Positions 2,347-57,427 of a stretch of 64,000 nt of DNA are shown piece by piece. The stretch is from Zootoca vivipara (Eukaryota), in NCBI RefSeq assembly GCF_963506605.1, contig NC_083292.1:35836001-35900000 (forward strand), written 5' to 3'. The first letter of the stretch is position 1; each line of letters opens with the position of its first letter. Position numbers and translations under genes: made by a program. The notes under the pieces were generated by a model. That model had not been told where the DNA came from. It searched no databases and saw nothing but the letters and a program-made list of their open reading frames with translations.

Positions 2347-2384
<38 letters not shown>

Positions 2385-24673: not shown

Positions 24674-26643
24674 GACTTCCGGTTGGTCGCGTCACCATCG
24701 AGGTTGGAGGTCCGTTCAGCGGAGCGGACCTCGGCACTTTGAAGGAAGGGAATGCCGCTCCAGCGAAGCGGATTCCCTTTAAAAACCCCGAGTCGAGAGT
24801 CTTGGGGGCAGGTTCGTCTGGCGGGCGTCAAAAGCGGGCTCTCCCCCCCCCCCCCGGAAAGGCTCTGTTTTGAGCCCCCGAGAGCGGCGGGATCGGAGCT
24901 GCGACGCGACAGACAAAGACCGCTAACTTCAAAGTGCGACGCTGCGAAACCGCGAGGCACAGCGACCAATTCTCCCAAGATTTGGATCAAAACTGTAAGT
25001 TTGGACTTTGATTTGGATTTAAATTTGGACAATTGGCAAAGGGATGAGACTTAAAAAACGGGAGTCAGTCTCTACCCATTGATGAGCTGGAGGCAGTGCT
25101 TTAGCCCGAAGCCAGAGAAAAGGATACAGAGTTTCAAAATCCCCAAGGAAAAACTATAACTTCCCCACCTAAGGCAGGGCTAAGGGGGGAAGAGTGGAAC
25201 AATATTGACCCTGCAAAAGCAATTGAAATACGTGGGAGAAACCCCTTCTCAACCCGGGACTCGGCACCCCAGGAGATTCAGCGAAATTTTTATGAAAGGA
25301 AAGGTTGACAGCTGTCAACAATAAAGTTAAAACGGTTTGCGATGAAAAAAGAAGAGATTAATTGATTGGATTTTAAGAACTGTGAAAATTATTTTTCAGC
25401 CATGTTGGATTTTTTTTTTTTTTGGAGTGGGACTTTTGAGTCTCCATTGCTCCTTGTCTTCTAATCTCCCTGCTGCCCTTGAGTGAGAAAGAATGTCAAC
25501 ATCCGGAACATCTGTTTTCCAGAGGACAGTGTTAAAATTGCTTGGAAACCTTATAGATGGGCAACAACAGCTTAGAGCTCAGCTAAGAGACGTCAGTGAA
25601 CAGTGTCAGGAACTGAATAAAACTTTGCAGAATGAGATTAACAATGGAAAATTAATCCCTGAAGACAGAAGGCAAGAATACACAGAAGAAGAAGGAAATG
25701 CCCAACAAGGAGAAGAGAAGGACCAGGACTTCATGGATAGTTCTGATCCTCTGGAATGGGAAAAACAAGAACTGGAATTGATTTCATGGGAAATGTGGGA
25801 AAATGTGAATAGGCAAGGAAAAGAGTGTGGGAAAATGGAGGGACAGAGGGAGGGGAAGGCAGGTGCATGGGTGGTAAAATGGGAAAGAATGGGAGTGGGA
25901 TGAAAAAAATTTGAATTAAAAGTAAGGCAGGAAAAAATGGATATGGATTTTGGTTTATATTAAGGAATATGAATTTGGATTATAATTTGGAATTGCTGTA
26001 TTAAAATGGGGGAAAGGGTCTGGGGTGGAGGAGGTGGTAGTAAATAATTAAGGATAGAAGAAAATATATGAATTAGGAAGGATTAAATCTAGGAAAATTT
26101 CTTGGGGGAAGACTAGGCTAGGGAGAAAAAATATGAGGTTGATTTAAAAAAAATGTTTATTTGAAGGTTATAAGTTGAAATCAGGGCATATGAATTGTTT
26201 GTTTAGATAAATAGCTTGGGGGCCTGCTCTCCCTTTCTCCCCCGCTGTTCCAGGGCCTCTTGGTGGCAGAGAGAGGTTCTGGGGGCGGGAGGGGGGGGAG
26301 TGATAAACCAAGCTATAAAAGGAAACATCTTTAACTGCTCGTCACCCATGGGCCTACTCGTGGCAGGGGGGGCACTGTGGGTTGGAGGGGTGGGAGAAGA
26401 TGGATTTTATGTTAATTGAAATAAGAGGTAATGTGAAATGATAATGATATGCTGTATGAATTTAGGTTTAAAGACTATGAGCTGAATTGCTACAATGAAA
26501 TTGCAATGATTGAGTAGGAGAAGATATGAAAATCAATGGGGAAAGATGAGGGGAAGTCACAAAAACAATGTTAACTAAAAGAGGATGAATATGTTTTGTT
26601 TTATTTTGTAAAATTAATAAAAATTATATTTAAAAAACAACAA
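24674..26643 (+). mobile_element. Non-autonomous L1-like retroposon (~1.97 kb, left arm only)
   Basis: Starts GACTTCCGGTTGG, CpG-rich 5' region, AATAAA plus A/CAA tail, 17-bp TSD CAAATGACCTGGAAGCT (24657-24673, 26644-26660); no RT/EN. Confidence 0.75.
25493..25903 (+). CDS. Putative 136-aa ORF of the retroposon (coiled-coil-like N-half, acidic C-half)
   Basis: Intact ATG-to-stop ORF; heptad-like LIDGQQQLRAQLRDVSEQCQELNKTLQNEI; no family recognised. Confidence 0.35.
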   Translation: MSTSGTSVFQRTVLKLLGNLIDGQQQLRAQLRDVSEQCQELNKTLQNEINNGKLIPEDRRQEYTEEEGNAQQGEEKDQDFMDSSDPLEWEKQELELISWEMWENVNRQGKECGKMEGQREGKAGAWVVKWERMGVG

Positions 26644-27662
26644 CAAATGACCTGGAAGCTATACGCCGGCTCCCTCAGCCAATAAAGTGAGATGAACGCT
26701 GCAACACCAGAGTCGTCTGCGACTGGACCTAATGGTCAGGGATCCCTTTACCTTGAATCCAAATTTGAAGTCCCCGCCCCCATTGCTGAGCAGACCATCT
26801 TAAAAAACAGTGATACCTCTCTCTTGATTTCTTAGTTCTAGGCCTTATCAATATTCTCTGTTGGTAAGTAGTCCCATGATATCTCTTTCACCTTCTCCAA
26901 CATTCAAGGGTTCTGATGATATTAAGGTGGCAAGTTCTGGAAATTCTTGCTGCACTGTTAACAGGATGGTGAGCGCTTGAACCAATCCAAGAAGATATGT
27001 TTTATGGTCTTATGGTTGTGATCCTGAACTGGCTTACTTTTGAGTAAGTTGCATTGAAAGGAACTTATTTATTGGTAGACATGTATATCATTGTGCTGCC
27101 ACATAAAACAAAACCAGGAAGCCAGTGCTATGATGCAGAAAAAGTTTTATTGGGAATTTCAAACAATAAAAGTATTCAAGTGAATACTAAGCATATTGGA
27201 AAACAATTAAGCAAATATGAACGCATTTCAGCGAACAGCTTCTCGTTTAGAATTATTTTTTCAGGCTGGAGGAAGAGTAGGGGGTTCTACATTTATAGAA
27301 CATTCTTTCCACCTTCCTTTACATTAAGTCTCAATTATACATATATACACTTGGGTGCTAATTTCATGGACATAGTGAATGGATCTTGTGCTTTTCTTCC
27401 TGATGGGAATTGGTGTGCTTCAAAGAGATGTAGGCAAATAAATATCATAAAGGAAAGTAACAAGCAGGGGAAAGTAAGGTAAAATTAAACTGGAAACAGC
27501 TGCATGTTCTAGATGGGCCTGATTACAAGGGATGCAGAACACTCTCCCAGCTCCCCTTGGGATTGCCTAGGGAGTTAGGGTGCTCAGCATATCTAAAATC
27601 AGACCTAAATAGTCCACCCCAGAGCTCTTTTTCTTTCCTCCTTGCTGACAGACTGTGAGAGC

Positions 27663-28172
27663 TTAGCAGGGGGTATAGCAGATGCTGCCTCTACGCCCCA
27701 CAAACCCATAACGGCCACGGCCCCCCAAAGCCCCAGAGCTAGACCCCAGAAGACCTGCACCACCATAGAGGCCTCTGCCAAATCCACTGCCAAATCCGCT
27801 GCCAAATCCGGATCCATAGCCACCAGCAGCACATGGGGTGTTGCCTCCGACAGACACAGGCTCGCAACTGGCAGAGAGGATGGGTCCTGGGATGGTCACG
27901 ATGGAGGCGGGTGGCTGGATCACGACCTCTGCTGGTGGGATCTGGTTGACGCATGAAGGCTGGACTCCAGAAAGAATACCAAGACTAGCAGAAGGGACAC
28001 CGGATCCAACCAGGGCACCGGAGCCAAAGCCATAGCCAGAACCATAGCCAAATCCACCGCCAAGGCCACCGCCAAGGCCACCGCCAAAGCCACCAAGACC
28101 GGCTGATCCAAAACCAACGACTGGGGTGGAAGCACAAGATGGGACAGCGCAGGATGGTCCACAGGAAGCCAT
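27663..28172 (-). CDS. Corneous beta-protein g4, Gly-rich, 169 aa (true start MASCG)
   Basis: CBP core CVNQIPPAEVVIQPPASIVTIPGPILSASCEPVSVGG; acceptor TTCCAG ending 28181; AATAAA 27151-27146. Confidence 0.95.
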   Translation of the reverse strand: MASCGPSCAVPSCASTPVVGFGSAGLGGFGGGLGGGLGGGFGYGSGYGFGSGALVGSGVPSASLGILSGVQPSCVNQIPPAEVVIQPPASIVTIPGPILSASCEPVSVGGNTPCAAGGYGSGFGSGFGSGFGRGLYGGAGLLGSSSGALGGRGRYGFVGRRGSICYTPC

Positions 28173-28934
28173 GGTTGAGTCTGGAAAGACATAGGCAGGC
28201 ACATATGTAACATCATATCCAAGAAACAAGCAATGAAAACTATGGGTTGCATCCAACTACCAATCATGAGTAGACATGTCCATTGATTTAAATGGGTCTC
28301 ATGGAAAAACTTTGAATACATGGAGAAACATGGAATACAGCCCTAAGTATTCTAAGTGACACAGTATATCTAGAGAGGGAAAGACCAAACCATATAATGA
28401 GCATCTTCATTCTCCCCCCCTTCATGTTTGATCAGAAGCTGGTGTTGCCAGTCTTCTGAGGCCAGTAGGGACATTTTATTCTTGCCAATAGTTCCCATGG
28501 AGGGAGGGGAGGGGTGGCCTATCAGAAATTGGCTGCCATATCTGAATGACCAGCAAAAGCGGTAGGGACATTATTTTAGTTCAACAACACCTATGGACTC
28601 AAGGTTGAAACACTGGTGCAGGGAGTTCTGACCAAATGTTCTAATGGCCAATCCCATGATGGTTATGCTCTGCCTCACCAGTTACAAGCAGCATGCTTCT
28701 GCATACCAGTTGCTGGAAACTCCAGAAGGGGAGATTGCCATTGCATGTGGGTCTTACGGGTGGGTTTTCAACAGGCATCTGATTGGCTTGTGTGGGAACA
28801 GGATCCCAATCTAGATGGGCCATTTGCCTGATCGAACAGCAGCTCTTCTTAAAACTTGCAACATATACAATGTTCAGACTATTTACTGAGGTTGTTTCAG
28901 TGAGTATAGTGGTGAAAACACAGCATAGAATGGA

Positions 28935-29139
28935 ATAAAATAAAAAAATTCCTTCAGTAGCACCTTAAAGACCAACTAAGTTTTTATTTTGCTATGAGCT
29001 TTCGTGTGCATGCACACTTCTTCAGTGTGCATGCACACGAAAGCTCATACCAAAATAAAAACTTAGTTGGTCTTTAAGGTGCTACTGAAGGAATTTTTTT
29101 GTTTTACTTCGATCCAGACCAACACGGCTACCTACCTGT
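28935..29139. mobile_element. Penelope-like derived hairpin element in g4 intron
   Basis: 77-bp arms 28942-29018 / 29024-29100, reptilian Penelope-type end CAGACCAACACGGCTACC, 13-bp TSD AGCATAGAATGGA. Confidence 0.7.
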
Positions 29140-29443
29140 AGCATAGAATGGAGTTAGACACTATGCAAAAGCTTCATTTAAGTTGTATTAACTGGACTCA
29201 GGATGTCATTGGCACCTCCCCTACAATAGTCTAGGGTAGGAATGGGAACTCAGAAGATGCTCCTGTTCCATCTGCCTGAAAATCAAATGATCTACCATTG
29301 AGCTATACCCCTCACTGAGGTTTCCGAAAGGCTGGCATTCCCATCCCTACCTTGGAGATGCCAGGGATTGAACTGGGAACCTTCTGCCTGCCCAGCAGAT
29401 GCTCTACCCCAGAGCTACAGCCCTTCCCTTAAGGATGACTTAC

Positions 29444-29528
29444 CTGTCTCTTGGAGGAGCTGGAGATGAATGAGAAGGTTTGTCAGGTGAAGCTGTAGAG
29501 AGAACCTGGAATGGCATGAGCTTTTATA
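29444..29528 (-). promoter_or_regulatory. g4 core promoter and non-coding exon 1 (unique type)
   Basis: TATAAAA 29528-29522, ACAGCTT starting 29496, donor CAG|GTAAGT at 29444/29443. Confidence 0.8.
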
Positions 29529-31513
29529 CCATTTTTCCAGAAGCAGTGCCAGTTAGGAAACGCCCCATGACGCTCAGAGGCTTTAAACAGCGGCAAACAA
29601 ATTTCTTTTTATGCATCATGAGATCTCGTTAATGCTATTACTCACAACATGTGAGGGAAATAATTAACAACTTGTCAGTGTCCCCCCCCCCTCTCACTCC
29701 CAGAATGGCTTATGGGCATTTCTAGTACACTTTTTCCTTTTCCCGCCCATCATCTGATCCTCCTGGGGAATGTTATGAAATGATTATGTATCTTCATCAA
29801 TCAACATTGGTGCTCCACCATTCCAGGTGTCATAGTTCAGTGGTAGAGCACCTGCTCTGTATGAAGAAGGTTGCCAGGTTCAATCCCTGGCATCTCCAGG
29901 TAGGGATGGGAATGTCCATTCTGAAATCCTGGACAGTTGCCCCCGGTCAGTGTAGACCAGGGGTGGGGAATTCTCCCTATTTGGTTCCATCTTCCAGCAC
30001 CAATGCCAAGTACATCTTTTGAATGCAGAAGCTCTCAGATTCAACCCCTAACTTTTCCAGGTAGTGCTGAGAGAAACCACCATACGGAACCCTGGGTCAC
30101 CACTGCCAATCAGCATAGAAAATACGAGCTAGAACCAATGGCTTGCCTAGAACCAATGGTCTGACTTGATCTAAGGCAGCTTCCTATATTTCTATAAACA
30201 TTTTCTTTGAAACTTTGACACTGTGGGAGCAGTCTGCCTAAGGGCCCCTTGCTTGGCTGGCTTACCCAGACTGGCATTTGTGGCAGGAGGAGAGTAAACA
30301 CCCATTGACACACATGCAAATAAAACATACAAAAATATGATTGAAATAATTGAAATAGTCAGGCTTCTCTCCAGCTCTATGTTTTATGTTCGCCTTAGAA
30401 TATTTGGCATGTGCCATTAAAGACACGAATACCTCAATTTCACTGGATCTACCCTTGGTATGTCTTCATTGGTTCTAGGGATAAGTGAAGCTATCCATTT
30501 CAGTCTCTCCTTTATCCAATGCTAAGTTCCGTTATCCAAATTTCTATATAAAGTTGTGAAATTATTATTATTAATTATCATTATCATCATTTAAAAAAAG
30601 CACCTTCAGGAAAATTCATCAGCATTTTAATGCACATTGCTCTGAACTTACATACAATATACAAAAGAGTGTTTTCCCCAGTCTTTATATTTTCCTTTGT
30701 CTAATGCATGTTTGCATGTTATTTTTTTTCCAGGAATGTAAGCATTCACCCGCATTTTACAGGTATTTCTAATTTTGTATGTGTGATGCCAGTTGTTTGA
30801 TGATGGTAATTTTGTATGCATTACTTAGCTGGAGAACAGCACTGCAAAATTCAGAGAAGTGCAAATTTCGGAGTATGCTTTGCTGATTGTTTCAGCAATG
30901 TGATTTAGGTAGGCTTCCCTTTAAATGTGATCTGTGCCAATTTTCTCTCCCATACCTAGAAGGGATTCATCTTTTAAAAATAAATAAAAATAAAACAACC
31001 CCAATTTGCATAGTGTGGGTGGGAGATCTTGAGGGGCACATCTTCTGGGGGACAAAGCACACACACGAAATACCTTGCCTCTTCATTCATTTCCTTTTCT
31101 CATTCTCAGCATGAATGAGAAATGCCTCTTCATTCATTTCCTTTTCTCATTCTCAGCAAAACAAAATCAAACTCAGACAATCCACGTGTTTGGGGGTGCC
31201 CTGGAGCTTAAACATGGTGACGTACCTGCTGTTTAATTTGCTTGTTTCTGTCAAACTAATTTTGAGAGATCAGAACCCCGATTAAGGGAATGAGCACTCT
31301 AATTATACTGGTAAGAAACCTGTCCTGCCCGAAATCTAAAATGATTAATATTAATTTCCACATATCAGTGCATCAGCAGCCTGTCTTGTGTTTGTGTGTG
31401 TGTGTGCATGTGTGAAAGAGAGAAAGAAGAGTCAAGTTACAAAATGATGCTCTGTTGACTTGATCTTTATCATTTGCAACTTAGCTGTCAAGGCAGCATC
31501 AAGTTAATGACAG

Positions 31514-31514
<1 letters not shown>

Positions 31515-31594
<80 letters not shown>
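31515..31594. repeat. (CT)n microsatellite
   Basis: Direct read. Confidence 0.95.
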
Positions 31595-31597
<3 letters not shown>

Positions 31598-31981
31598 CAG
31601 GAGAGAGTAGCTTAGAGAGTAGCTTGGAAGAAATAGTTTACCCAAGGTAACAATAATCTATAACTCATCCAGCTGGCCTCTTTTACATCATTATGGTTCT
31701 TCAACCCCAGCATCTTCTTCACAAATGTAAGAAAAGGCCTGCTAGCTCAGACCAAAAGCCCATCTAGTCCCATGGCATACCCTCCAACATTTCTCAGATG
31801 AACATTGGTACGTTCTGTTCTACACCAGGAAGCTTCTCCCATGTTTGATCTCCCACCCACATATGCGTCATATATACATATACATCTGCCACCTTGAGCC
31901 ACTTACAACCTCTCTGCCAGGGAAGGGGAAGTGGTAGAGGAAGTGTAGAAGTGTGATCAGTCCTCCCTTTATATTGAGGCC

Positions 31982-32620
31982 ATGACGTATAGCTGCGCAG
32001 AAGCAGTGTTCGCTCAGAGATTGGGGGATATCGCCAGACAGGAGGACATAGCCCGTGTGGAATCTGGGATGTTTTTAGGGGAGCAGGTGTATCGGGCTGC
32101 ACCAGCCCGTTACCTGGCGGATAGCCACTACATGGAATACCACAGAGTACTTACTGTGGCCAGACTGAATGTTCTTGATTCGGCGGTTTTGAGGGGAAGA
32201 TTTGGAGGAGTCCCATACGGTCAGAGAATGTGCCATTGTGCCTTAGGTGAGGTAGAATCCACAGAACACATTTTACTGAGTTGTCCCTTTTATAATGATT
32301 TAAGGCAATATCTTATAACCCCATATTTATCTCAGTTTAGTTCCCGACTAAGAGAATGGCAGGCAGCATATTTGCTAAACAACCCCACTGGGAAAATACC
32401 CTTCTCGGTGGCTAAATTCCTCTTCCTGGCGCTCAAGTGTCGGAAACGTATAATCGAATGCCTTGATGTGGGTTACCTTTAGGAGGTTCAGTAGTGCGGT
32501 CATACTTCATTTATGTATCCCTCTGATGCCTTCAGTTTTATATTTTTATATTTGTATTGAGAAATGTTTTTTCTTTCTGTCTATCGGTCGAATAAAGTAT
32601 ATTGTATTATTGTATTGTAA
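31982..32620 (+). mobile_element. Non-LTR retrotransposon 3' fragment (RTE-X-like)
   Basis: C-terminal zinc-knuckle RMCHCALGEVESTEHILLSCPFY, AATAAA and (TATTG)n tail. Confidence 0.65.
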
Positions 32621-33019
32621 CCTTTCCACCAAATCTACCTTGCAAGATTGTTGAAAAGAAAAAATGTGTGAGGGAAGATATCATGTGGAACACCTTCAAC
32701 AGATACTGTAAATGGAGCAGAATAAAATTGTAGCTGTGAGCTGCCTTTAGTCCTTGTTAGGGGGAAAAGACACAACAACAACAACAACAACCAACAGAAA
32801 CTTTGAGAATGATCAGGAACACACCAGGGAGCAAATCCTATTGACCTTAGTTCTTTAAAAAATAATAATATTTATTATGCAATACAGACACTGGAAAGAA
32901 AAGCATTAAGTTCATGGTGTTATTTTATATGATCTTAATGTTGGAAAATGCCCTGGGAAGGCTGCAAACTTCCCATGTCTCCGGAGCATTCCCGGTGGCT
33001 CTCTCTGGCTGTAAAGCAG

Positions 33020-33158
33020 ATGTCAAGGCAATAAGTAACTATTTTACTTTTAGAAGACAACTGAAGGCGGCCCTGTTTAGGGAAGTTTTTAATGTCTGAT
33101 GCTGTACTGTTTTTAATATTCGGTTGGAAGCCGCCCAGAGTGGCTGGGGTATAAATAA

Positions 33159-33205
<47 letters not shown>
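33020..33205 (+). mobile_element. L2 LINE 3' end with (ATT)n tail
   Basis: FRRQLKAALFREVF; GGAAGCCGCCCAGAGTGGCTGGGG. Confidence 0.75.
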
Positions 33206-33207
<2 letters not shown>

Positions 33208-33579
33208 TCCTTCAGTCCAGAGCAGCAGGTGATAAACGACTCTTCTCCTCTGAAAAGAGCAGGCCAGACTTCCGGCATATCGTAGCAGAAGAAAGACTCA
33301 TTTGTAGTTCTAAAACTACTTTATTTACAGTCTTATATACAGAGGCTCTATCAGTACGTCTGTGCTCTTTGAACACCAGTACTTTACTGCGTAGTTACAC
33401 AAAAGTGATCAACCCCCCCCCCCACATACATTAAATAAAATAGAAACATCATCACCGACCCCACCCCCACCCATTTACCCCCCATCTACCTCTTTCCCCC
33501 TTCTCTTCCCAATGTCTCAACAAATGAAACTGACCTGTAAAAATGCTACAAGAGACATTGCACATACTTTTGTAAATCA

Positions 33580-34265
33580 AAAGGAGAGGAGATATGATAG
33601 CCATCTTCAAATAACTCAAGGGCTGTCACATGGAAGATGGAGCAGACTTGTTTTCTCCTGTTCCAGAGGGTAGGACATGAACGAATGGCTTCAAGTTACA
33701 AGAAAGAACATTCCAACTAAATATCAGGAAGAACCTTCTGAAAGTAAGAGCTGTTTGACAGTGGAACAGTTTCTCTTGAGGTTATTGGACTTTCCTTCCT
33801 TGGAGGTTTTTAAGCAGAGGTTGGATGGCCACCTGTCATGGATGCTCTAGCTGAGATTCCTTCATTGCCGGGAGTTGTTCAAGATGACCCTGTTGTGTCG
33901 TGGCTTAAGAAGTCCAGATACACATCTTCAATAGAACAGTTCTTTATTCAGGGCAAAACAGGACTGACTCTGAGGGCAGGAAGGCTACATTTATAGGGAC
34001 AGGGAACTAGGGAGTGGACAGGATACATTTTGGAGGGAACAATATCAGGCAATCCCAGTGCTGCCTTTTGGAGGGAACCAATAAGACAGTGGATCCAAAT
34101 ACAGCAGCTTAAATGAACCAATAGTAGCTGTACCTTCTGGAACCAAAAGGCAGTTACTTAACCCTAAAGCACATACAGACAATAGTAATGCAGATATAAA
34201 ATGCTTTGACTCAATACACAACAGACCCTTTGGGGGTCCTTTCCAATGCTATGCTTTTATGATTC
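33580..34265 (+). mobile_element. CR1 3' fragment split by a solo LTR
   Basis: Homologous to 20900-21236. Confidence 0.75.
33891..34223 (-). mobile_element. Solo LTR (333 bp)
   Basis: TGTTGTGT...ACACAACA termini, 5-bp TSD GACCC; minus-strand TATAAAT (33995-33989) and AATAAA (33948-33943). Confidence 0.8.
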
Positions 34266-34618
34266 CCCTGCTAGACATGGGAGGGGCCCCTTTCCGGATC
34301 CTCCCATCCACCTGGAAGTTTGGCTGTGCACCAGCTCCTCTCGTCAGGTGATGCCAATGGAAAGCTGCATCACACCACCAGGTGCCTCTCTTCTCTCATT
34401 CAGCAGGAGGGGAGATGTTCCACAGAGTTTTGACACCAGTCCTATTCTGCCCGCAGACTAGAGGCTGGGGAGACCAGTGGCAAAGCTGTGTGAGCTCTGC
34501 TTGCATATGCGAGACACCCTTTTCAGTGTAATTTTTGCTTGCTGCTTGTAGGAAACCTTGAGAATTGTGTAATTCACAAATCAGAAATATTTGTCAAGAA
34601 AAATCAAGGAAGAATGAT

Positions 34619-35060
34619 TAATAATAATAATAATAATTTATTATTTATACCCCACCCATCTGGCTGGGTTTCCCCAGCCACTCTGGGCGGCTTCCAACAG
34701 AAAAATGAAATGAAATAATCGATTAAAGATTAAAAGCCTCCCTAAACTGGGCTGCCTTCAGATGTCTTCTAAAAATCTGGTAGCTGTTTTTCTCTTTGAC
34801 ATCTGATGGGAGAGCGTTCCACAGGGTGGGCACCACTACCGAGAAGGCCCTCTGCCTGGTTCCCTGCAACTTGGCTTCTCGCAATGAGGGAACCACCAGA
34901 AGACCCTTGGTGCTGGACCTCAGTGTCCAGGCAGAACCATGGAGGTGGAGACGTTCCTTCAGGTATACTGGACCAAGGCCATTTAGGGCTTTAAAGGTCA
35001 GCACCAACACTTTGAATTGTGCTCGGAAACGTACTGGGAGCCAATGTAGATCTTTCAAGT
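34619..35060 (-). mobile_element. L2 LINE 3' fragment
   Basis: LHWLPVRFRAQFKVLVLTFKALNGLGPVYL...RAFSVVVPTLWNALP typical L2 ORF2 end. Confidence 0.9.
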
Positions 35061-35989
35061 AGATTAAGTACAACCTGTGCAAACTTTAAGCTTGTCTTGC
35101 ATTAAAACCTGGGAAAAACACATTCAGATCATTTGAATTAAATAAACCAAGCATTTTAACAAGCACACACTACAATTTTCTTTATGGGCAAATAATTACA
35201 AGCAGGGCAAAGCGGCTCAATTAATGCTGGAATGCAAGATTGCATGGGGTCATGGCACTTAACTTGCTTTGTTGGTTTCTTCTGATCTTGTCAACGATTT
35301 TGGAAAGCCGACAAGAATCCTCTAGCAGGAAACCCAAACAGCCAACACCTGGTACCTGACACCAGCGGAAGGCATCAAAGCATGGAGATGATCCTCTAGC
35401 CACAAAGTTGCTTGTGGGGTTTTTTCCTGTTAAGATTGCTGACTCTGGAATTGCCCTGTGAGGTTCACACTATTCAGCTGATCAGGCGCCACCAGTGCCG
35501 GATGTACGCATAAGCTAAGCAAGCTATAGCTTAGGGCCCCACTCTCTTGGGGGCCCCCCAAAAAATTAAAGGAAAAAAAAACCTGGGTGTACATTTCCAA
35601 AATATAAGATAAAAAACAAATAAGGTCTGCTGTCCCAATGAACAGTGTGGACTACTATGGTGATACTGATATTATATAAAAATGCATTGTATTAACTACA
35701 ATTGCATTGTACAGGTTATAACACTTAATTTCATATTAATATACTGTAGCTATTTAGAATGATTCGTAGTTTGCATCATATATTTACACCTATTATTATT
35801 TCATGTTATAGCAAGTTTCTAGAGACTGGATTATGAGCCTTTGTAAATTGCGTTTCTAAAGGAACTTTTGTTATTGCCAAATGCCAATGTGTTTGCCTTA
35901 TTAAGTTTGTTATGAATAAGAAATCCTTTTAAGTTAGAGCTTAATTTAACTATTAATATACTTCTTCTTAATTGTATTTCACTATTAAT

Positions 35990-36078
35990 CATAGCTGCCA
36001 AGTTATCCCTTTTTTAAGGGATTTTCCCTTATGCTGAATAGGCTTCCTCGCGAGAAAAGGGAAAACTTGGCAGCTATG
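35990..36078. mobile_element. 89-bp mini hAT MITE
   Basis: Perfect TIR CATAGCTGCCAAGTT, 8-bp TSD CTATTAAT; empty site at ~62627-62634. Confidence 0.85.
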
Positions 36079-36415
36079 CTATTAATATACTTCTTAATTG
36101 TATTTCAGTTCAACAATTACTTTTATAAAATACATATTTTGTTATGTGCAAATGGCTTTAGATACCTATTAGGTCCATAAACTATCATAAAGCATATATT
36201 CAACACACACAAAAAAAAACAGCGAAACAGTGGAATGGAAGACTATGAATTTCAATCTCTCTCCGTTTCTCATATCCCCCATCTTAAGTTCAATTCATCT
36301 GAATCAGTCTGCATTTTCCCCTGAAAATAAGCCATAGTGTGTTTTTTTGAGGAAAAAATAAATATAAGACGTGTCTTATAATATGAGAAGCACAGTATAT
36401 AGGTGAAGCATCATT

Positions 36416-36781
36416 AAAGGTAAAGGTACCCCTGTCCGTTAGATCCGGTCATGGACGATTCTGGGGTTATGCACTCATCTTGCTCTATAGGCTGAGGGAG
36501 CCAGCGTTTGTCCGCAGACAGCTTCTGGGTTATGTGGCCGGCATGACTAAGCCGCTTCTGGTAAACCAGAGCAGTGCACAGAAACGCCGTTTACCTTCCC
36601 GCCGGAGCGGTACCTATTTATCTACTTGCACTTGACGTACTTTAGAACTGCTAGGTGGACAGCAGCTCGGACCGAACAATGGGAGGTCACCCAGTTGCGG
36701 GGATTCGAACTGCCAACCTTCCGATCAGCAAGCCCTAGGCTCTGTGGTTTAGACCACAGTACAACCCGTGTCCCGCATTTA
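36416..36781 (-). mobile_element. Sauria SINE
   Basis: Head/tail motifs, TSD AAGCATCATT; mirror 61834-62198. Confidence 0.9.
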
Positions 36782-37727
36782 AAGCATCATTAGGGTGCTG
36801 TAAATAGCCATGGATATTTAAAGTCCCCAAAGAATGGGAACTGCAGTTTGTTAAGGGGGCAAAAAGTTGTTAGGGGACTCCTATTCCCAGCAGAGAATTA
36901 TAATTTCCAGGGTGCTTTAACAAACAACTCTTTAACAAACAAGGGAACTCTGGAAATTCTGGCTTTCAAAAGGTGAATAACTTCAGCTTCCAGAAAAAAA
37001 TATACAAGTTCCCCACCATGCTCATTTCTGATGTCACATAAATTGCTTTGAGGGGACCTGCACATCTTTTCCTGTAATTCCCCCCCCCCCAAATGGCTAG
37101 AGATTCTGGGTTGCCCCAGCCACTCTGAGTGGCTTCCAACATATATAAAACGTAACAAAACATTAGACATTTAAAAATGGCCCTATACAGGGTTGCCTTC
37201 AGGTGTCTTCTAAAGGTTGTATAATTACTTATCTCCTAGGCTCAGGGGTTGTATAACTCCATACCCTCCAACATTTCTTCAATGAAAATAGGGACATCCT
37301 AAGGAAAAGTGGGACATTCTGGGACCAAATCAGAGACTGGGTGAGCTTCTGTACATCAAGGACTTTCCCCAGGAAAACAAAGACACTTGGGGGCTCTATC
37401 GTAGTTTCTCTTTCTTTGTATTTTCATTTTTTAAAAAAATGCTGTATATTTAAAAACAGAACGAAAGGAAATAAGTCCCACTTTCCCTCCCAACGAGACT
37501 CCTTCCCAAGCCAACGGAACACAGTGTACAATCCCCGGAGGGAAGAAATGGGGGGGGGGAATGAACATGTTGTGTAATAAGCTGATTACAGAGTTGGCAT
37601 CCTGACAACATTTGGCTTATTAAAGCAATTTTAGACTATGATGGAAGCAGCAGATTTTGATCGTGGATAATTGAGACATTAAGTGTGAAGGGGCGTCTCC
37701 CAACCATTAAGGACTCCATGAGGATGC

Positions 37728-37811
37728 TATAAAAGCTCTCCTTCTTCCACGGCTCACCAACAGCTTCACCTCTCATCATCTCTCAACTTCCCACTCATCA
37801 AAACAACACAG
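37728..37811 (+). promoter_or_regulatory. g5 core promoter and non-coding exon 1
   Basis: TATAAAA 37728-37734, ACAGCTT 37760-37766, donor CAG|GTAAGC at 37811/37812. Confidence 0.85.
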
Positions 37812-38959
37812 GTAAGCTTGGCTTGTCCAAGTCCTTGCATAGATCAAATGGGTAAAAACTAGAGGAAGGTCAATATTGGTTGGACATAGCACAGTTTGTA
37901 GGAAAGCAAGGAGCACAGGAAGCTGCCTTATATCGATTCAGATGATTGGTCTATCTAGCTCATTATTGTCTACACCAGGAGTGGGAAACTTTTGGTCCTC
38001 CAGAGGTTGCTGAGCTATGTCTCCTGTCATCCTTAGCAAGCATGGCCAATGGCCAGGGATGATGGATGTAGTAGTTCAGCAGTCCCTGGAGGGTAAAAGA
38101 TTCCCCACAACTGGTGTATACTGGGTTCCACATTGGGCGTATCTGCCAACCCTACCTGAAGATGCTGGGGATTGAACCAGGGCCTTCTGCCTACAAAGTA
38201 GATGCTTTAAACAGAGCCAGAATCATTCCCCAAAGAAACCGATTGGTTTGATGAAGGAAGTGATCGACTAGACAGTTGGGTAGTCAATATCTCCTGCACT
38301 GGAGGTCTGGATTGATGGCTATAGGAATTGATGGTGTAAAAAGCTACAGTTCTGTGATTCTATGAAATATTACTTTATGGAGAGCTTTTAGAATAGTTAC
38401 ACTGATTCATCTCAGAAGAAGCTCCAGTTTGCTTCCATTTACTTATACCTGCCAACGTAGGACTTGTCTCGGAGATTTTAAATACCAATGGCCATTTATA
38501 CTAAATCTTCATGGTGTATTTGTGCTACCTAGTTCCTTTGAAGTATTTCTCTTAGACTTCCACACACATGTCTAGCTCTTTTGAATTTCCAACGCCTTTC
38601 TACAGTTAGCTGGGGATTTAGAATTCCACATTCTCAGCATGTTTTATTCTATATGCTTGGAATGTCTACCTATGACACAAACCTAAAACTGATTTAATAG
38701 TTCTTCTCTCTTTGGAAACAGAGATGTAATTCTGTGTGGGAGGGGGAAGAGATTTATGCCAGGATCCTCATCTAAATAGCAGTATTGCGAACTGCTGTTG
38801 GATCAGGCAAATGGCCCATTGAGTTCAGCATCCTGTTCTCACATAGTCCAATCAGATGCCTGTTGAAAACCCACCCATAAGATCCACATGCAATTGCAAT
38901 CTCCCTTTCTGGAGTTTCCAGCAACTGGTATTTAGAAGCATGCTGCCGATTTCTGATAG

Positions 38960-39350
38960 GCCACGCCTCCCCACCCCCATAGTATCTATTTTCAAAAATA
39001 AAATGTTCCCACTGGCCCGCAAAGACTGGTATAATTTAGGTGTAATTACAAACGATATTCCTGGCAATCAAAGGAAAGTATTCCTCTATGCAACAACAGC
39101 TGCCAGGATGCTCATAGCAAAATATTGGAAAGGGAGGGAAATCCCATCAATAAAAGAACGGCAAATTAAACTTTGTGAATATATAAATTTGGCAAGATTT
39201 ACAGCATCCTTAAGGGGATAATCGGACCAAAAATGAGCAAAAGAATGGGATTGTGTTAAAGAATATATGAAAAAAACATTGTTCTGGAGTAAGTATATCA
39301 GTATGTAACGAAAGAAGCTTTGCAGGGTTAAAGAAATTGAAAAACCAGGG
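38960..39350 (+). mobile_element. L1 ORF2 3' fragment in g5 intron
   Basis: FLYATTAARMLIAKYWK motif; mirror ~59080-59460. Confidence 0.75.
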
Positions 39351-39507
39351 GCTTGGTTCCCATGCTTGTCATAATTTAAGCAGACCCATTTAAATCAATG
39401 GACATGTCTACTCAGATTGGTAGTTGGATGCAACCCATAGTTTTCATTGCTTGTTTCTTGGATATGATGTTACATATGTGCCTGCCTATGTCTTTCCAGA
39501 CTCAACC

Positions 39508-40029
39508 ATGGCTTCCTGTGGACCATCCTGCGCTGTCCCATCTTGTGCTTCCACCCCAGTCGTTGGTTTTGGATCAGCCGGTCTTGGTGGCTTTGGCGGT
39601 GGCCTTGGCGGTGGCCTTGGCGGTGGCCTTGGCGGTGGATTTGGCTATGGTTCTGGCTATGGCTTTGGCTCCGGTGCACTGGTTGGATCCGGCGTCCCTT
39701 CTGCTAGTCTTGGTATTCTTTCTGGAGTCCAGCCTTCATGCGTCAACCAGATCCCACCAGCAGAGGTCGTGATCCAGCCACCCGCCTCCATCGTGACCAT
39801 CCCAGGACCCATCCTCTCTGCCAGTTGCGAGCCTGTGTCTGTCGGAGGCAACACCCCATGTGCTGCTGGTGGTTATGGATCCGGATTTGGCAGCGGATTT
39901 GGCAGTGGATTTGGCAGAGGTCTCTATGGTGGTGCCGGTCCTCTGGGGTCTAGCTCTGGTGCTTGGGGGGGCCGTGGCCGTTATGGGTTTGTGGGGCGTA
40001 GAGGCAGCATCTGCTATACCCCCTGCTAA
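39508..40029 (+). CDS. Corneous beta-protein g5, 173 aa
   Basis: Near-identical to g4 with one extra GGGL repeat and two substitutions; acceptor AG 39498-39499; AATAAA 40541-40546. Confidence 0.95.
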   Translation: MASCGPSCAVPSCASTPVVGFGSAGLGGFGGGLGGGLGGGLGGGFGYGSGYGFGSGALVGSGVPSASLGILSGVQPSCVNQIPPAEVVIQPPASIVTIPGPILSASCEPVSVGGNTPCAAGGYGSGFGSGFGSGFGRGLYGGAGPLGSSSGAWGGRGRYGFVGRRGSICYTPC

Positions 40030-40856
40030 GCTCTCATGGTCTGTCAGCAAGGAGGAAAGAAAAAGAGATCTAGGGTGGACTATTTAGGTCTGATTTTAGA
40101 TATGCTGAGCACCCTAACTCCCTAGGCAATCCCAAGGGGAGCTGGGAGAGTGTTCTGCATCCCTTGTAATCAGGCCCATCTAGAACATGCAGCTGTTTCC
40201 AGTTTAATTTTATCTTACTTTCCCCTGTTTGTTACTTTCCTTTATGATATTTATTTGCCTACATCTCTTTGAAGCACACCAATTCCCATCAGGAAGAAAA
40301 GCACAAGATCCATTCACTATGTCCATGAAATTAGCACCAAAGTGTATATATTTATAATTGGGACTTAATGTAAAGGAAGGTGGAAATAATGTTCTATAAA
40401 TGTAGAAGCCCCTACTCTTCCTCCAGCCTGAAAAAATAATTCTAAACGAGAAGCTGTTCGCTGAATTGCGTTCATTTTTGCTTAATTGTCTTCCAGTATG
40501 CTTAGTATTCACTTGAATACTTTTACTGTTTGAAATTCCCAATAAAACTTTTTCTGCATCATAGCACCGACTTTCTGGTTTTGTTTTCTGTGGCAGCACA
40601 ATGCTATACATGTCTACCAATAAATAAGTTCCTTTCAATGCAACTTACTCAAAAGTAAGCTGGTTCAGGATCACAACCATAAGACCATAACACATATCTT
40701 CTTGGATTGGTTCAAGTGCTCACCATCCTGTTAACAGTGCAGCAAGTATTTCAGAACTTGCCACCTTAATATCATCAGAACCCTTGAATGTTGGAGAAGG
40801 TGAAAGAGATATCATGGGACTACTTACCAACAGAGAATATTGATAAGGCATAGAAC

Positions 40857-42601
40857 CAGGGGCGTACCCAGGATCAAAACTAGGGGGGGGGCAAGCCATG
40901 GTCATTCAGGGGCGGGGCCAAGGCACGGGAGGGGAGGGGCCACAAAGTGGGAATGTGGGCGGGGCTACAGGGGCAGTGGGCCCGACGACTCGGCGGCGGC
41001 GGCTGCAGCCGCTAAATGAACCCCCTAAACTCTCTCACACGAAATTCCCCTGCTCTGAAGCAGGGCTGTTTCTAGGCCCGGGTCCGGTGGCGCGGGGCAC
41101 CAGGCCACCAGGGGCGCCGCTGCGTCTGCTTAGAGGCATGGCAGAGGCCGCCCCAGGCGCACCTCTCAGCTGTTCAGCAGCTTCAGGCTGCTTTCCGGAG
41201 GCGCGCAGGCCTGGGGCCGCCTCTGTCGCACGCAGGGGCGTCACAACAGGGGGCGGGCAGCACCCCCTGGCCCAGGGCCAGCCCTACGGCCAGGCTGGGT
41301 TGCGCAGGGTTTCGGCCCTCCAGGCGGCAGCTGCGCAGTGAGCTGCGCCCGCCGCGCCGGGAAACGGGGCGGGGTGGGGGCGCCAGAGGGATCCGTCACA
41401 GCACGGTGCCAGGGCGCCAGGTATGCTTAAGACGGCCCTGCTCTGAAAACACTGCTCCCATTTATGGCTAGCCAGCCCCCTGAAAAACCCTTTTGGGCCC
41501 CGCTTTTCCTCCTCCAGGTTCCCCCCGAAGCCTTGCCAGTTCCCACCCTATATATCTGGGATGGGGAAGGAGCTCAGAAGTCTGCTAGTCCTGGGGGGCC
41601 ATCCCCCCGTGGCCTGGGAGGATACTGAGACCCCCCCACCAAGCTGAGACCCCCAAAGAAGAAGAAGAAGCTGCCACCGCCGCCTCCCTACCACAAGGGA
41701 GCAAAAGATGGGAAAGGTGGGGTGGCGCAGTGCAGGCGAGCGAGCCCCCCCCCAGCTGCGATCCTACGGTGGCGGCAGCTGCTCCCCCGCCCTCAACGCC
41801 CCTCTCTCGGCAGGGGCAGCAAGGGAGAGCGGCTGGGGGGGCGCATTGCAAAGAAGGAAACAGCAGCCATTGCCCGGAGAGGGCAATGCACGCAGGGGGG
41901 GGGCGAAGAGCTGTGCCGCCCCACAAGGCAGCTCCTTTCCTATTGTTGGGGGTGGGGGGGCGGCGAGGAAGGGTCACTGACGCTGGGCTACTCCTGCCGC
42001 CGGCAATCCGGCGCAAACACCCCCAGGCAGCTTCCTTGCAGCAGCCACGACCACCGCCTTCGGGCGCCGCCCCCGACTCCTCCCTTGCGGGCTTCTGCCC
42101 GCCGAGGCTGAACTGGCTCCTGTCGGTGCACTTCCTCTCCCGGCCCAGGAGGAGTCTCAGTAGCAACTCCTAACTCAGTGGGGGTAGGGGGTTCGGAGGG
42201 GGGGGGAAGGGGGCGATTCCCAGCCCGCGGCGCCGATGATCGCAGTGCAGCCTACCAGGAGGCAGAGTGCAGCAGCGGCTGCAACCAATGCAGGGAGCCG
42301 CGTCTCCTTCGCTTGCCAGCCCAGCAGAACTTTTAGGCAGGAGAGGTTGCCGTCCGGCAGGGCTTTCCTTTGGGAGGCGCGAAGGCTTTAGTGGGTGGGA
42401 ATTGGTGCAAATGTAGGCAGGGCGGGCTGAGAGGAGGAGCCGCCGCCGAGGAGCCGTGGCACCAGCAGCGTTTCCTCCCCCCCCTCCCGTGTCAACAAGC
42501 GGGGCGCCTGTGCAGGGTATTTGCTTCCCTAGTCGGGCCCGTGGTTTGGCCTTCTAGGGGGGGCAGCTGCACCCCCCTGCCCCATGCTGGGTACACCCAT
42601 G
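40857..42601. mobile_element. GC/CpG-rich non-autonomous hAT element (1745 bp, right arm only)
   Basis: TIR CAGGGGCGTACCCAG / CTGGGTACACCCATG, 8-bp TSD CATAGAAC; empty site at ~26835. Confidence 0.85.
41061..41440. mobile_element. Nested hAT MITE
   Basis: Ends CAGGGCTGT / ACGGCCCTG, 8-bp TSD CTCTGAAG/CTCTGAAA. Confidence 0.75.
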
Positions 42602-42688
42602 CATAGAACTAAGAAATCAAGAGAGAGGTATCACTGTTTTTTAAGAAGGTCTATTCAGCAATGGGGGGGGGGACTTCAAATTTGGATT

Positions 42689-43037
42689 AAAGGTAGAGGG
42701 ACCCCTGACCATTAGGTCCAGTCGCGGACGACTCTGGGGTTGCAGCGCTCATCTCACTTTATTGGCTGAGGGAGCCGCCGTAGAGCTTCCAGGTCATGTG
42801 GCCAGGATGACTAAGCTGCTTCTGGCAAACCAGAGCAGCACACGGAAACGCCGTTTACCTTCCTGCTGGAGCAGTACCTATTTATCTACTTGCACTTTGA
42901 CGTGCTTTCAAACTGCTAGGTTGGCAGGAGCTGGGACCGAGCAACGGGCTCACCCCGTCACAGGGATTCAAACTGCCAACCTTCTGATCGGCAAGCCCTA
43001 GGCTCAGTGGTTTAACCCACAGCACCACCCGTGTCCC
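42689..43037 (-). mobile_element. Sauria SINE (intact copy)
   Basis: Head GGGACACGGGTGGTGCTGTGG, ACCTTT tail. Confidence 0.9.
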
Positions 43038-48382: not shown

Positions 48383-48871
48383 CTAATTGCACACACTACC
48401 ACGACGCCCCAGCAGGGATCTCCTTCCAAAGAGGCCACCCCTCCTCAAACCATAGCCCCAAGAGCTTCCAATGAGGCCATCCCCATAGCCCCACCCACCG
48501 TAACCATAGCCTCCTACGATCCCGGAACCACCAACAGCACATGGAGTGTTGCCTCCAACAGACACGGGCTCACAGCTGGCAGAGAGGATGGGCCCTGGGA
48601 TGGTCAGGACGGAGGCAGGTGGCTGGATCACGACCTCTGCTGGTGGGATCTGGTTGACGCATGATGGGGCAACTCCTGCCAGGACTCCGAGGTTGGTTGC
48701 TCTTTCAGCACCTCCATAACCATAGCCAAGACCTCCATATCCGTAGCCTAGACCTCCATATCCATACCCAAGACCTCCATACCCATAGCCAAGACCTCCT
48801 GCTGATCCAAATCCAACAGTGGGGGTGGAAGCACAGGATGGGACAGCACAGAATGGACCACAGTCAACCAT
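48383..48871 (-). CDS. Corneous beta-protein g6, 162 aa (mirror of g3)
   Basis: Same core as g3, four GGLGYGY repeats; acceptor ending 48890; ATTAAA 48081-48076. Confidence 0.95.
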   Translation of the reverse strand: MVDCGPFCAVPSCASTPTVGFGSAGGLGYGYGGLGYGYGGLGYGYGGLGYGYGGAERATNLGVLAGVAPSCVNQIPPAEVVIQPPASVLTIPGPILSASCEPVSVGGNTPCAVGGSGIVGGYGYGGWGYGDGLIGSSWGYGLRRGGLFGRRSLLGRRGSVCN

Positions 48872-49212
48872 TGTTGGGTAGAGATGAGTCTGAAACCAAG
48901 AAGAACATGGGAGCAAATGAACATGTGGAATGCCACTCCAATGGGGTATGCAGGGGACATTTAAATCAGCTGCCTTTGACAGTTCTAAAATTATGCCCCA
49001 ATGCTTGGATTCTTTATTGTTTTCTCTTCTTTTCACCACCACCCTTCTCTTCATTGTGGGTCCCAAATCCAAATACTAGCAACTCCAGGAATGTCTGAGA
49101 ATGTCATCTATCTGAAACTCTGGAGAATAGTTTCCAGTCAGTGAGGACAAAAGTGAACTAGAAGGTCCAATGGTCTATCTTGGTAAAAAGCAACTCCCAA
49201 AGTTTCTATTTA

Positions 49213-49522
49213 GAGACGCGGGTGGCGCTGTGGTCTAAAGCACAGAGCCTAGGGCTTGCTGATCGGAAGGTCGGCGGTTCAAATCCCCACGACAGGCGAG
49301 CTCCCGTTGCTTGGTCCCAGCTCCTGCCAACCTAGCAGTTCGAAAGCACGTCCGAGTGCAAGTAGATAAATAGGTACCACTCAGGCGGGAAAGTAAACTG
49401 TGTTTCTGTGTGCTGCTCTGGTTCACCACATGAACCTTGGCCAGTAAAGCGAGATGAGCACTGCAAACCCAGGGTCGTCCACAACTGGACCTAATGGACA
49501 GGGGTCCCTTTACCTTTACCTT
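49213..49522 (+). mobile_element. Sauria SINE in g6 intron
   Basis: Mirror of 18548-18858; TSD AAGTTTCTATTTA. Confidence 0.9.
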
Positions 49523-50340: not shown

Positions 50341-50427
50341 CAAAGTCTCTGAGCAGTAAAAATGGAGAGAAGGAGATCAAGTCAAGTAAAGCTGTTGGAA
50401 TATCTCAGCCCAAGGAACCCTTTTATA
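50341..50427 (-). promoter_or_regulatory. g6 core promoter and non-coding exon 1
   Basis: TATAAAA 50427-50421, ACAGCTT starting 50395, donor at 50341/50340. Confidence 0.85.
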
Positions 50428-57419: not shown

Positions 57420-57427
57420 GTCTAGAC

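Follow-up and report, generated by a model that had tools for sequence, protein, structure and literature searches.

An inverted repeat in a lizard corneous beta-protein cluster looks like a fixed scar of past DNA copying

Three genes for corneous beta-proteins (CBP, also called beta-keratins) with near-identical coding exons, g4, g5 and g8, were found in the 64,000-nt stretch of Zootoca vivipara contig NC_083292.1 analysed here (positions 35,836,001 to 35,900,000, assembly GCF_963506605.1; hereafter the window). All three open reading frames are intact, and the PF02422 beta-sheet core typical of CBP genes in the sauropsid epidermal differentiation complex (EDC) scored 31.1-31.4 bits in all three proteins (cut-off 25 bits). 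The g4 and g5 proteins are 98.8% identical; two substitutions, L>P and L>W, and an additional GGGL unit of a 4-residue repeat set them apart. In g8, homology in the 3' UTR stops about 60-75 nt past the stop codon. The coordinates of the features are collected in Table 1.

Table 1. Features of the inverted repeat, its spacer and the third gene copy (window positions)
Feature	Position	Strand	Remark
Left arm (B + a)	9437..28299	.	contains g2, g3, g4 exon 2
g4 CDS, 169-aa CBP	27663..28172	-	exon 2 from 28180; PF02422 above cut-off
g4 intron	28181..29443	-	final 119 nt common to g5/g8
Spacer S, 11,082 nt	28300..39381	.	both promoters, both exon 1s, most of both introns
Older intron homology, g4 side	28448..28845	-	28688-28845 and 28448-28536
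Hairpin (MITE-like) insertion, g4 intron	28936..29106	.	83-nt arms, 13-nt flanking direct repeat
SINE-like repeat, start of g4 intron	29336..29435	-	matches N-terminus of Podarcis muralis model P0027
P4: TATAAAAG 29528-29521, non-coding exon 1 ends 29444	29444..29528	-	TATA-to-donor 85 nt
P5: TATAAAAG at 37728, non-coding exon 1 ends 37811	37728..37811	+	TATA-to-donor 84 nt
g5 intron	37812..39499	+	final 118 nt common to g4
Older intron homology, g5 side	38789..39029	+	88.6% and 80.9% to g4 blocks
g5/g8-only segment abutting inner boundary	39030..39381	+	not alignable to g4 (p=0.49 vs shuffles)
Right arm (a' + B')	39382..58342	.	contains g5 exon 2, g6, g7
g5 CDS, 173-aa CBP	39508..40029	+	exon 2 from 39500; PF02422 above cut-off
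Junction, right arm outer end / third exon 2 copy	58340..58360	.	3-bp microhomology (GCA), 58340-58342
g8 CDS, 169-aa CBP, third copy	58416..58925	-	PF02422 above cut-off
S', inverted copy of spacer right half	59052..64000	-	39381 back to 33801, 814-nt gap; leaves window

In the available parts of PMC4245816 and PMC11431283, EDC CBP genes are described as having a TATA box, an exon 1 without coding sequence and just one coding exon, and the same arrangement is seen here. Each gene has one coding exon 2, and G/GTAAG donors (the slash marks the exon end) lie at 29444/29443 in g4 and 37811/37812 in g5. The TATA-to-donor distances of g4, g5 and g8 (85, 84 and 84 nt) fall within the exon-1 range of 60-90 nt, TATA to donor, given as a CBP criterion in the accessible text of PMC4245816. 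Local duplication is common in the EDC complex, as at this locus; unlike usual CBP genes, three near-identical coding exons stand here behind two promoters that are about 66% alike. PMC5366951 places the CBP cluster between loricrin and EDYM2, markers which lie outside the window. Among the papers listed in literature searches, no description of this locus was found.

The closest named matches are lacertid 'scale/claw keratin-like' proteins with 70-71% BLAST identity. In a protein tree of 31 rows, g4, g5 and g8 cluster together (support 87/92) with no resolved sister group, and ancestry was not drawn from this tree. An exact look-up of 6 window proteins, with the ends assigned to them here, matched none in the protein collection, although g6 is identical to P0091. 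In searches for lacertid orthologs of g4, g5 and g8, the C-terminal region gave 0 hits among 678 candidates, and a further search gave 6 longer proteins among 8000 scored, none of them lacertid. Two g4 peptides had no match in the text part of the PMC11431283 supplement. A sequencing-run search with positions 27100-37099 showed no RNA run among the matches listed, and 9 runs with a small share (0.06-0.15) of the words of this segment were not counted as evidence.

According to the initial annotation, near-identical coding exons are fed by two different outward-facing promoters, and this is confirmed by the TATA/exon-1 units P4 and P5, which align across about 350 nt (p<=0.001, 1000 shuffles). 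An AP-1-like site, by a consensus that we assume, is located at -116 of the g4 promoter, and none was found in the 400 nt upstream of g5 and g8. Exon 1 of g8 is identical to that of g5, and the P5 unit from TATA box to exon-1 end (37728-37811) has 0/84 differences to its g8 copy. Promoter and exon 1 of P5 and its g8 counterpart P8 differ at 3/391 sites, versus 120/4018 elsewhere between the two spacer copies (p=0.006), which suggests constraint on this sequence.

The introns carry older traces. Positions 28688-28845 match 38946-38789 in inverted orientation with 88.6% identity, and the adjacent colinear block 28448-28536 matches 39029-38942 with 80.9%. The weaker inverted homology proposed earlier is therefore present, with the qualification that the 88.6% block is a member of a dispersed repeat family whose other copies in the window are 71-88% identical over 33-76 nt. 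For the 80.9% block, no further copy except that of g8 was found within the window. Together with the alignable promoters, these colinear blocks support the earlier suggestion that g4 and g5 derive from an older head-to-head pair. The homology sits 150-550 nt inside the inner arm boundaries and none of it abuts them directly; just inside the boundaries, g4 and g5 show no homology (p=0.21-0.49 against shuffles). The g4 intron starts with a SINE-like repeat, and the segment found only in g5 and g8 resembles a decayed LINE 3' end; a Pfam search on the g5 intron frame in this segment gave 0 families.

The left arm (9437-28299) matches the right arm (58342-39382) in inverted orientation with 286 substitutions in 15,290 gap-free sites (1.87%). 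Multi-kb private insertions, among them 24657-26660 and 40839-43061, are carried by the arms besides these substitutions, and private insertions with flanking direct repeats are present in both arms and in S'. Arm-to-arm identity is 98.1%, below the >99% mark of conversion-maintained primate X/Y palindromes. Both inner boundaries had been placed inside introns about 118 nt before the acceptors, and this is accurate: the distance to the AG is 118 nt in g5 and, owing to a 1-nt insertion, 119 nt in g4.

The two-promoter arrangement as first observed left out the third copy, g8. Positions 33801-40105 are present again, inverted, from 58340 to 64000 and beyond. The spacer thus occurs in both orientations in cis (S and S'); S' holds the g8 intron (58934-60783), g8 exon 1 and its TATA box (60867), and differs from S by 2.8% substitutions. 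With a as the last 118 nt of the intron plus exon 2, the block order is B-a-S-a'-B'/a-S', in which the slash is the 58340 junction. About 0.7 kb is present three times, and B and the right half of the spacer twice, the window ending inside S'. Three substitutions lie within the 16 nt that follow the junction, and no closer template for these changes was found within the window. A templated insertion at this point was rejected, as its best matches carry 3 mismatches. Iso-Seq linking of exon 1 to copy-specific variants is confounded at this locus, because in g8 an exon 1 of the g5 type already precedes an exon 2 without the g5-private changes; exon-1/exon-2 phasing in transcripts would be misread if g8 were ignored.

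Copy-specific substitutions among g4, g5 and g8 are star-like, 7:6:7 in about 705 nt (chi-square p=0.95), in a weak test that gives 7:6:10 with the three junction changes and in which one site hinges on the alignment of the Gly repeat. g8 is as near to g4 and to g5 as these are to each other. The variants were polarised by P0027, a single frameshifted automatic gene model of Podarcis muralis compared as protein only; 11/11 were private to one copy and 0/11 shared-derived. These private variants show no trace of exchange after the origin of the copies. Clustering of exon 2 variants (p=0.002, two largest gaps) was rejected as proof of conversion, the gaps being mostly the conserved N-terminus and core. 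The N-terminus of P0027 maps to the repeat in the g4 intron, where 10/13 residues match with a score of 45, the best of 127,584 windows (next best 22), and the 8 other copies of this repeat match at most 5/13 residues. As the pairing is common to Podarcis, P4 and the g4-type exon are probably the old pairing. The possibility that g4 is a new chimera, the native exon of P4 being a diverged paralog, was rejected for the same reason: P0027 ties the g4 intron to the g4-type exon.

The spacer had also been proposed to be an invertible cassette. The geometry does allow a crossover flip; the part of the proposal in which the flip is a working switch is not supported. Out of about 15,375 aligned arm bases, only the first 205-216 nt (1.3-1.4%) form a zone where a crossover would re-pair promoter and whole coding sequence, and the longest identical run in this zone is 182 nt. 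Crossovers past the stop codon (96% of the arm) would turn g4 and g5 around whole, each keeping its own promoter. In either spacer orientation each promoter is paired with a 98.8%-identical protein, with no ON/OFF or A/B change. Because of this small swap zone, the near-identical proteins in either state, and arms that are 1.9% diverged with private insertions, a functional promoter switch is judged unlikely. A rare, near-neutral inversion of the spacer by ectopic crossover is possible.

The locus looks rather like a fixed scar of past DNA copying. The explanation that we hold with reasonable confidence is an old head-to-head pair followed, after the split from Podarcis, by a replication-type inverted rearrangement that gave the g4/g5/g8 order. 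The block order fits template switching initiated by inverted repeats, of the DUP-TRP/INV-DUP family. The start would be an old CBP pair, visible in the sequence, with diverged promoters P4 and P5, whose inverted homology may have set off the rearrangement in the germline. Its outcome would be the order U-B-a-S-a'-B'/a-S', with a 19-kb inverted duplication, the 58340-58342 junction with its microhomology, and a further, inverted spacer copy carrying g8. A single ancestral sequence would underlie all three exon-2 copies, which would have diverged afterwards. P4 with this exon is probably the old pairing; P5 with this exon (g5 and g8) may be a captured pairing, or conversion reaching as far as the intronic heterology may earlier have homogenised the partner. 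In the latter case one event with two switches could give the whole order, one spacer copy being inverted by the event itself. The likely effect would be a higher dose of one CBP, with P4 used once and P5 twice, expressed perhaps in two or more epidermal layers or sites. The present structure would be static, and inversion by rare ectopic crossover, as in any palindrome spacer, close to neutral.

Two results count against this explanation. Non-coding divergence is higher between S and S' (122/4400) than between the arms (260/13,618; p=0.0007, and p=0.01 without CpG), with p=0.19 at the window level (10 vs 28 windows); a strictly single origin does not account for this except with partial conversion of the arms. 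Just inside the boundaries g4 and g5 show no homology, so that a first switch driven by homology is a possibility only.

The human DUP-TRP/INV-DUP alleles of MECP2 and PLP1, as described in the available parts of PMC11293582 and PMC4352052, resemble this locus in an inverted duplicated segment adjoining an inverted repeat pair, in a second junction that has short microhomology with changes close by, and in an inter-repeat segment present twice in opposite orientations. In the accessible text of PMC11293582, second junctions have 2-7 bp of microhomology, and conformers in which the inter-repeat segment is inverted are reported too; that of PMC4352052 reports, for PLP1, de novo point changes close to junctions, switches driven by homeology, and junctions in two copies. 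By contrast, the repeats here are genes that share about 0.7 kb, whereas the human switch segments given there are 2.2-5.5 kb at 100% identity; here triplication is visible for only about 0.7 kb, and the event is an old one whose distal end, where the original orientation would be resumed, lies outside the window.

An assembly artefact, in which two haplotypes of a polymorphic locus, perhaps with opposite spacer orientation, were joined so that B', g8 and S' are allelic, is unlikely. Ten runs of 3 studies contain 0.45-0.59 of the sampled words of 27100-37099, from which a difference of about 1.7-2.5% between individuals is estimated, contig fragmentation also lowering the share. This is comparable with the 1.9-2.8% that separates the copies, and the private insertions could be allelic. 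However, the only N run of the window is at 973-1101, the 58340 junction is exact to the base and shows microhomology, the copies do not lie in tandem but are inverted and interleaved, and the promoters and introns of g4 and g5 are non-allelic.

A similarly low probability is given to a broader reading, in which CBP genes in head-to-head pairs would themselves serve as inverted-repeat substrates and promoters and coding exons would be reshuffled repeatedly, P5 having captured the coding exon of g4 at an intronic switch, g1 being an older mosaic of this sort, and spacer orientation and copy number still segregating in the species. If true, it would provide a mutational route that moves a scale protein to a new epidermal layer or body site with the protein unchanged, and variation between individual lizards would be visible.

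It is quite improbable that a germline inversion by ectopic arm crossover is segregating, with near-boundary crossovers re-pairing P4 and P5 to some effect on scale protein. The geometry permits it, nine identical runs of at least 200 nt exist between the arms, both spacer orientations occur in cis, and about 50% of X palindrome spacers are inverted between primate species according to the available part of PMC8327919; against this stand the narrow swap zone with its 182-nt longest run, products that only 2 substitutions and a GGGL unit set apart, and the lack of shared-derived variants (0/11). Equally improbable is an old palindrome without recent rearrangement, homogenised by ongoing arm-to-arm gene conversion with tracts ending at the intronic heterology. 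Identity is layered along the g4/g5 units (66%, 81-89%, 99%), a 763-nt identical run covers the g3/g6 promoter region, g2 and g7 have 1 difference in 489 nt, and conversion is suggested, not shown, for EDC genes in the accessible text of PMC11431283 and PMC4245816. The arms, however, are 1.87% apart with multi-kb private insertions, the g4/g5 3' flank is among their most diverged parts (26/817), g8 is equidistant from g4 and g5, and the 58340 junction and S' are left unexplained. A programmed somatic switch, with an enzyme inverting the spacer in skin cells and changing the promoter-copy pairing, is scarcely credible: layout symmetry alone speaks for it, but each orientation yields two promoter-exon pairs whose products are near-identical, with no ON/OFF asymmetry, a RAG-type signal (consensus assumed by us) had 0 matches on either strand, and the two inner boundaries share no flanking motif. 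We know of no programmed inversion switch in vertebrate epidermis, and a regulated flip, which would be very surprising, finds no support at this locus.

In the bacterial invertible promoter switches fim and hin, inverted repeats enclose a segment that holds the promoters, as here; at this locus, however, no RAG-type signal or shared boundary motif was found that would mark short recombinase sites, there is no ON/OFF asymmetry, and the repeats are 19-kb vertebrate gene arrays. Primate X/Y palindromes (P6; FLNA-EMD), in the available parts of PMC3723533 and PMC8327919, likewise have large inverted arms and, between them, a gene-bearing spacer invertible by ectopic crossover, whereas the arms here are less alike, with private insertions, and their boundaries cut two genes. 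Avian IGH loci, in the available part of bioRxiv 10.64898/2026.09.05.749481, share direct and inverted copies of a repeat unit in a multigene cluster; unlike there, no sign of somatic conversion or pseudogene donors is seen here, the visible copies all having intact ORFs.

Under the favoured explanation, a past replication-type rearrangement, the locus would most likely be a clean natural case, fixed or segregating in a cluster of reptile skin genes, of a kind of rearrangement that is known from disease alleles in humans. One coding exon would now stand behind two old promoters, and CBP clusters may acquire copies and new promoter-exon pairings in a single step. This would be weightier if P4 and P5 are active in different layers or sites and haplotypes segregate.

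Elsewhere in the same cluster, an older inverted homology is seen between g0/g1 and g2/g3, and g1 is an older promoter/exon mosaic.

Self-comparison of the window returned inverted arms at 9437-28299 and 39382-58342, which differ at 286 of 15,290 gap-free sites (1.87%) and enclose the spacer, S. The feature is real, and the initial annotation described it correctly. Its arm boundaries, placed inside introns about 118 nt before the g4 and g5 acceptors, were measured at 119 nt (g4) and 118 nt (g5). The proposed outward-facing promoters and exons 1 were recovered, with TATA boxes at 29528 (P4, promoter and non-coding exon 1 of g4) and 37728 (P5, those of g5) lying 85 and 84 nt from G|GTAAG donors; both distances fall inside the 60-90 nt spacing that defines CBP exon 1 in the accessible text of PMC4245816. 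P4 and P5 are homologous, with ~66% identity (local alignment, p<=0.001, 1000 shuffles), and, as had been claimed, two different promoters stand before near-identical exons, the two proteins being alike except for L>P, L>W and one GGGL unit. P4 has an AP-1-like site, judged by the consensus, at -116; 400 nt of P5, and of P5's copy, contain none. The weaker inverted homology deeper in the introns consists of two colinear blocks, an 88.6% block that is a dispersed repeat and an 80.9% block whose sole further copy is that of g8; the 148 nt and 352 nt directly inside the inner boundaries fail to align with each other (p=0.49). The older head-to-head origin of g4 and g5 holds.

Corneous beta-protein (CBP) genes and short hairpin elements in the window
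Feature	Position	Strand	Description
g1	5445	+	CBP reading frame
g2	12634	-	CBP reading frame
g3	19189	+	CBP reading frame
g4	28172	-	CBP reading frame
g5	39508	+	CBP reading frame
g6	48871	-	CBP reading frame
g7	55338	+	CBP reading frame
g8	58925	-	CBP reading frame
Short hairpin (MITE-like)	9899-10062
Short hairpin (MITE-like)	24167-24303
Short hairpin (MITE-like)	28936-29106
Short hairpin (MITE-like)	43732-43868
Short hairpin (MITE-like)	57420-57571
Short hairpin (MITE-like)	59692-59827

PF02422 scored above cut-off in all three proteins tested (g4, g5, g8), and lacertid proteins were the best named homologs; P0006, a Zootoca vivipara protein, is 98.8% identical to g6. The CBP cluster position is given in the accessible text of PMC5366951. 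The proteins of g2 (12146-12634) and g7 (55338-55826) are identical, with 1 difference in 489 nt, and three Gly-Tyr repeat units (21 residues) of g6 are absent from g3. Lacerta agilis and Zootoca vivipara each have several close copies of a related CBP subfamily (homologous proteins P0001, P0085, P0002, P0088-P0090; ~78% identity to g4); the Zootoca members group in a single clade (99/96), and some of them are versions of the same record.

The initial account omits a second, inverted copy of 33801-40105, found by self-comparison at 58340-64000 and continuing past the window end. This copy holds g8 with the promoter and intron of g5, and exon 1 differs from that of g5 at 0 of 84 sites. With a denoting the shared intron end and exon 2, B the remaining arm, S the spacer and S' the inverted copy of part of it, the blocks run U-B-a-S-a'-B'|a-S'. 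Their junction (58340-58342) shows 3-bp microhomology, with three substitutions within the next 16 nt, for which a better template was not found in the window. Promoter and exon 1 of P5 differ from the g8 copy at 3 of 391 sites, against 120/4018 elsewhere (p=0.006); this lower divergence suggests that P5 is used. g8 has lost the poly(A) signals that g4 and g5 have 512 and 590 nt past the stop; its candidate signals lie at 350 and 439 nt, in arm-outer-end sequence (57500-58415).

The locus is best read as a CBP-cluster case of a known rearrangement class, the DUP-TRP/INV-DUP type. In the accessible text of PMC11293582, human second junctions show 2-7 bp microhomology, and conformers with an inverted inter-repeat segment exist; that of PMC4352052 describes, for PLP1, switches driven by homeology, point changes close to junctions and one junction in two copies. 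Recurrent inverted duplications within a gene cluster appear in the available part of an avian IGH preprint (10.64898/2026.09.05.749481). A published description of this locus was not found in the literature searched, subscription papers and image-only supplements being beyond reach, which is weak evidence.

A template switch in the germline most likely started from inverted homology within the old head-to-head pair. In route (i), the exons would already have been alike by conversion, bounded by intronic heterology; one switch between them could run back across the spacer and on through a' and B', before a switch at microhomology returned copying to a, a single event yielding the observed order with the spacer left in both orientations. 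In route (ii), a switch at 39381/39382 would join P5 to the exon of g4, and this join would then be copied a second time, into g8. Both routes fit the window sequence, which does not separate them. Non-coding divergence is higher in S/S' (122/4400) than in the arms (260/13,618; p=0.0007), and this counts against a strictly single origin; the difference has p=0.01 when CpG is left out and p=0.19 when 500-nt windows are compared, 10 vs 28. The excess could reflect partial arm conversion, as in a 763-nt identical run, or instead a template from another haplotype. That run, 17425-18187 (g3/g6 promoter and exon 1) and its right-arm copy, is far above expectation at 1.9% divergence (roughly estimated at ~1e-5, the indel count being assumed), and local conversion over the g3/g6 promoter is possible. 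In the accessible parts of PMC11431283 and PMC4245816, gene conversion in the epidermal differentiation complex is suggested, not demonstrated.

Older inverted homology (67-80%) links 87-6218 to 11872-17748, pairing g0/g1 (TATA 186-, 4100+) with g3/g2; thus, head-to-head pairs were duplicated inversely here before. g1 (5323-6218) looks mosaic. Its promoter resembles that of g2, as does a relic acceptor/ATG (5323-5371); the intron end and N-terminus that follow resemble g3 (5369-5533, 84%), and the C-terminus and 3' UTR are again of g2 type.

It is improbable that the copies are alleles joined in the assembly. Ten DNA-sized runs from three studies contained 0.45-0.59 of sampled words of 27100-37099, an estimated difference of 1.7-2.5%; allelic divergence may therefore rival copy divergence, and the identity values alone would also fit such a merge. 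However, the sequence is gap-free after 1101, the junction is base-exact and the inverted copies stand in interleaved order. The sole assembly gap in the window (973-1101, 129 N) is distant from the junctions.

The exons of g4, g5 and g8 appear to have radiated from one sequence. Copy-specific substitutions number 7:6:7 over ~705 shared nt (p=0.95 against equality), leaving out three junction-adjacent g8 changes and with one site hinging on the Gly-repeat alignment; with the junction changes the count is 7:6:10 (p=0.57), and the equality test is weak. All three reading frames are intact, with 9 synonymous and 6 non-synonymous variable codons. P0027, a frameshifted Podarcis muralis model known as protein only, spans exon 2 into the 3' UTR, and its 73 alternate-frame codons cover 11 variants in 10 codons. 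All 11 are private (g4 5, g5 4, g8 2) and none is shared-derived, codon 165 being counted as two private changes from the three-copy comparison; 11 of 20 substitutions were so polarised, the other 9 being without polarity. This pattern indicates one source sequence, with later exchange not visible in the polarised part. The N-terminal 13 residues of P0027 find their match in a SINE-like repeat at the g4 intron start (29414-29376; 10/13 identical, score 45; next best 22 among 127,584 windows), and eight other copies of the repeat match at <=5/13 residues. This makes P4 the probable old partner of the exon. A first model, with g4 as the new chimera, was overturned by this match.

The older origin and the two-promoter arrangement hold; the proposed invertible switch does not. 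Any arm-arm crossover inverts the spacer, but a promoter is re-paired with the whole other coding exon only when the crossover falls within the initial 205-216 nt, or 1.3-1.4% of the 15,375 bases aligned; a partial swap zone covers 637 nt (4.1%), and crossovers beyond these leave g4 and g5 intact as they flip. Within the swap zone, identical runs reach at most 182 nt. Whichever way the spacer lies, the protein behind each promoter would be 98.8% identical, which leaves no ON/OFF or A/B difference in output. Private insertions occur in the arms, and no RAG-type signal was found. The proposed Iso-Seq linkage of exon 1 to copy-specific SNPs would be misled because g8 already has an exon 1 of g5 type in front of an exon from which the changes private to g5 are missing. 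Judged from sequence, the effect is likely a greater dose of one CBP under two promoters.

One point for occasional spacer flips is that around half of the X palindromes compared between primate species differ in spacer orientation, which the accessible text of PMC8327919 reads as mostly harmless. In that of PMC3723533, inversions of the Y palindrome P6 have a rate of ~1.5e-5 per generation when the outer 16% of its arms is considered, and converted Y palindromes exceed 99.9% identity, whereas the arms here fall short of that and carry private insertions. These insertions have flanking direct repeats, of 17 nt in the left arm (24657-26660, ~2.0 kb) and 20 nt in the right (40839-43061, 2.2 kb, GC- and CpG-rich), and both are useful markers of arm identity. 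Some of the MITE-like hairpins likewise occur in one copy alone, flanked by repeats of 9-13 nt.
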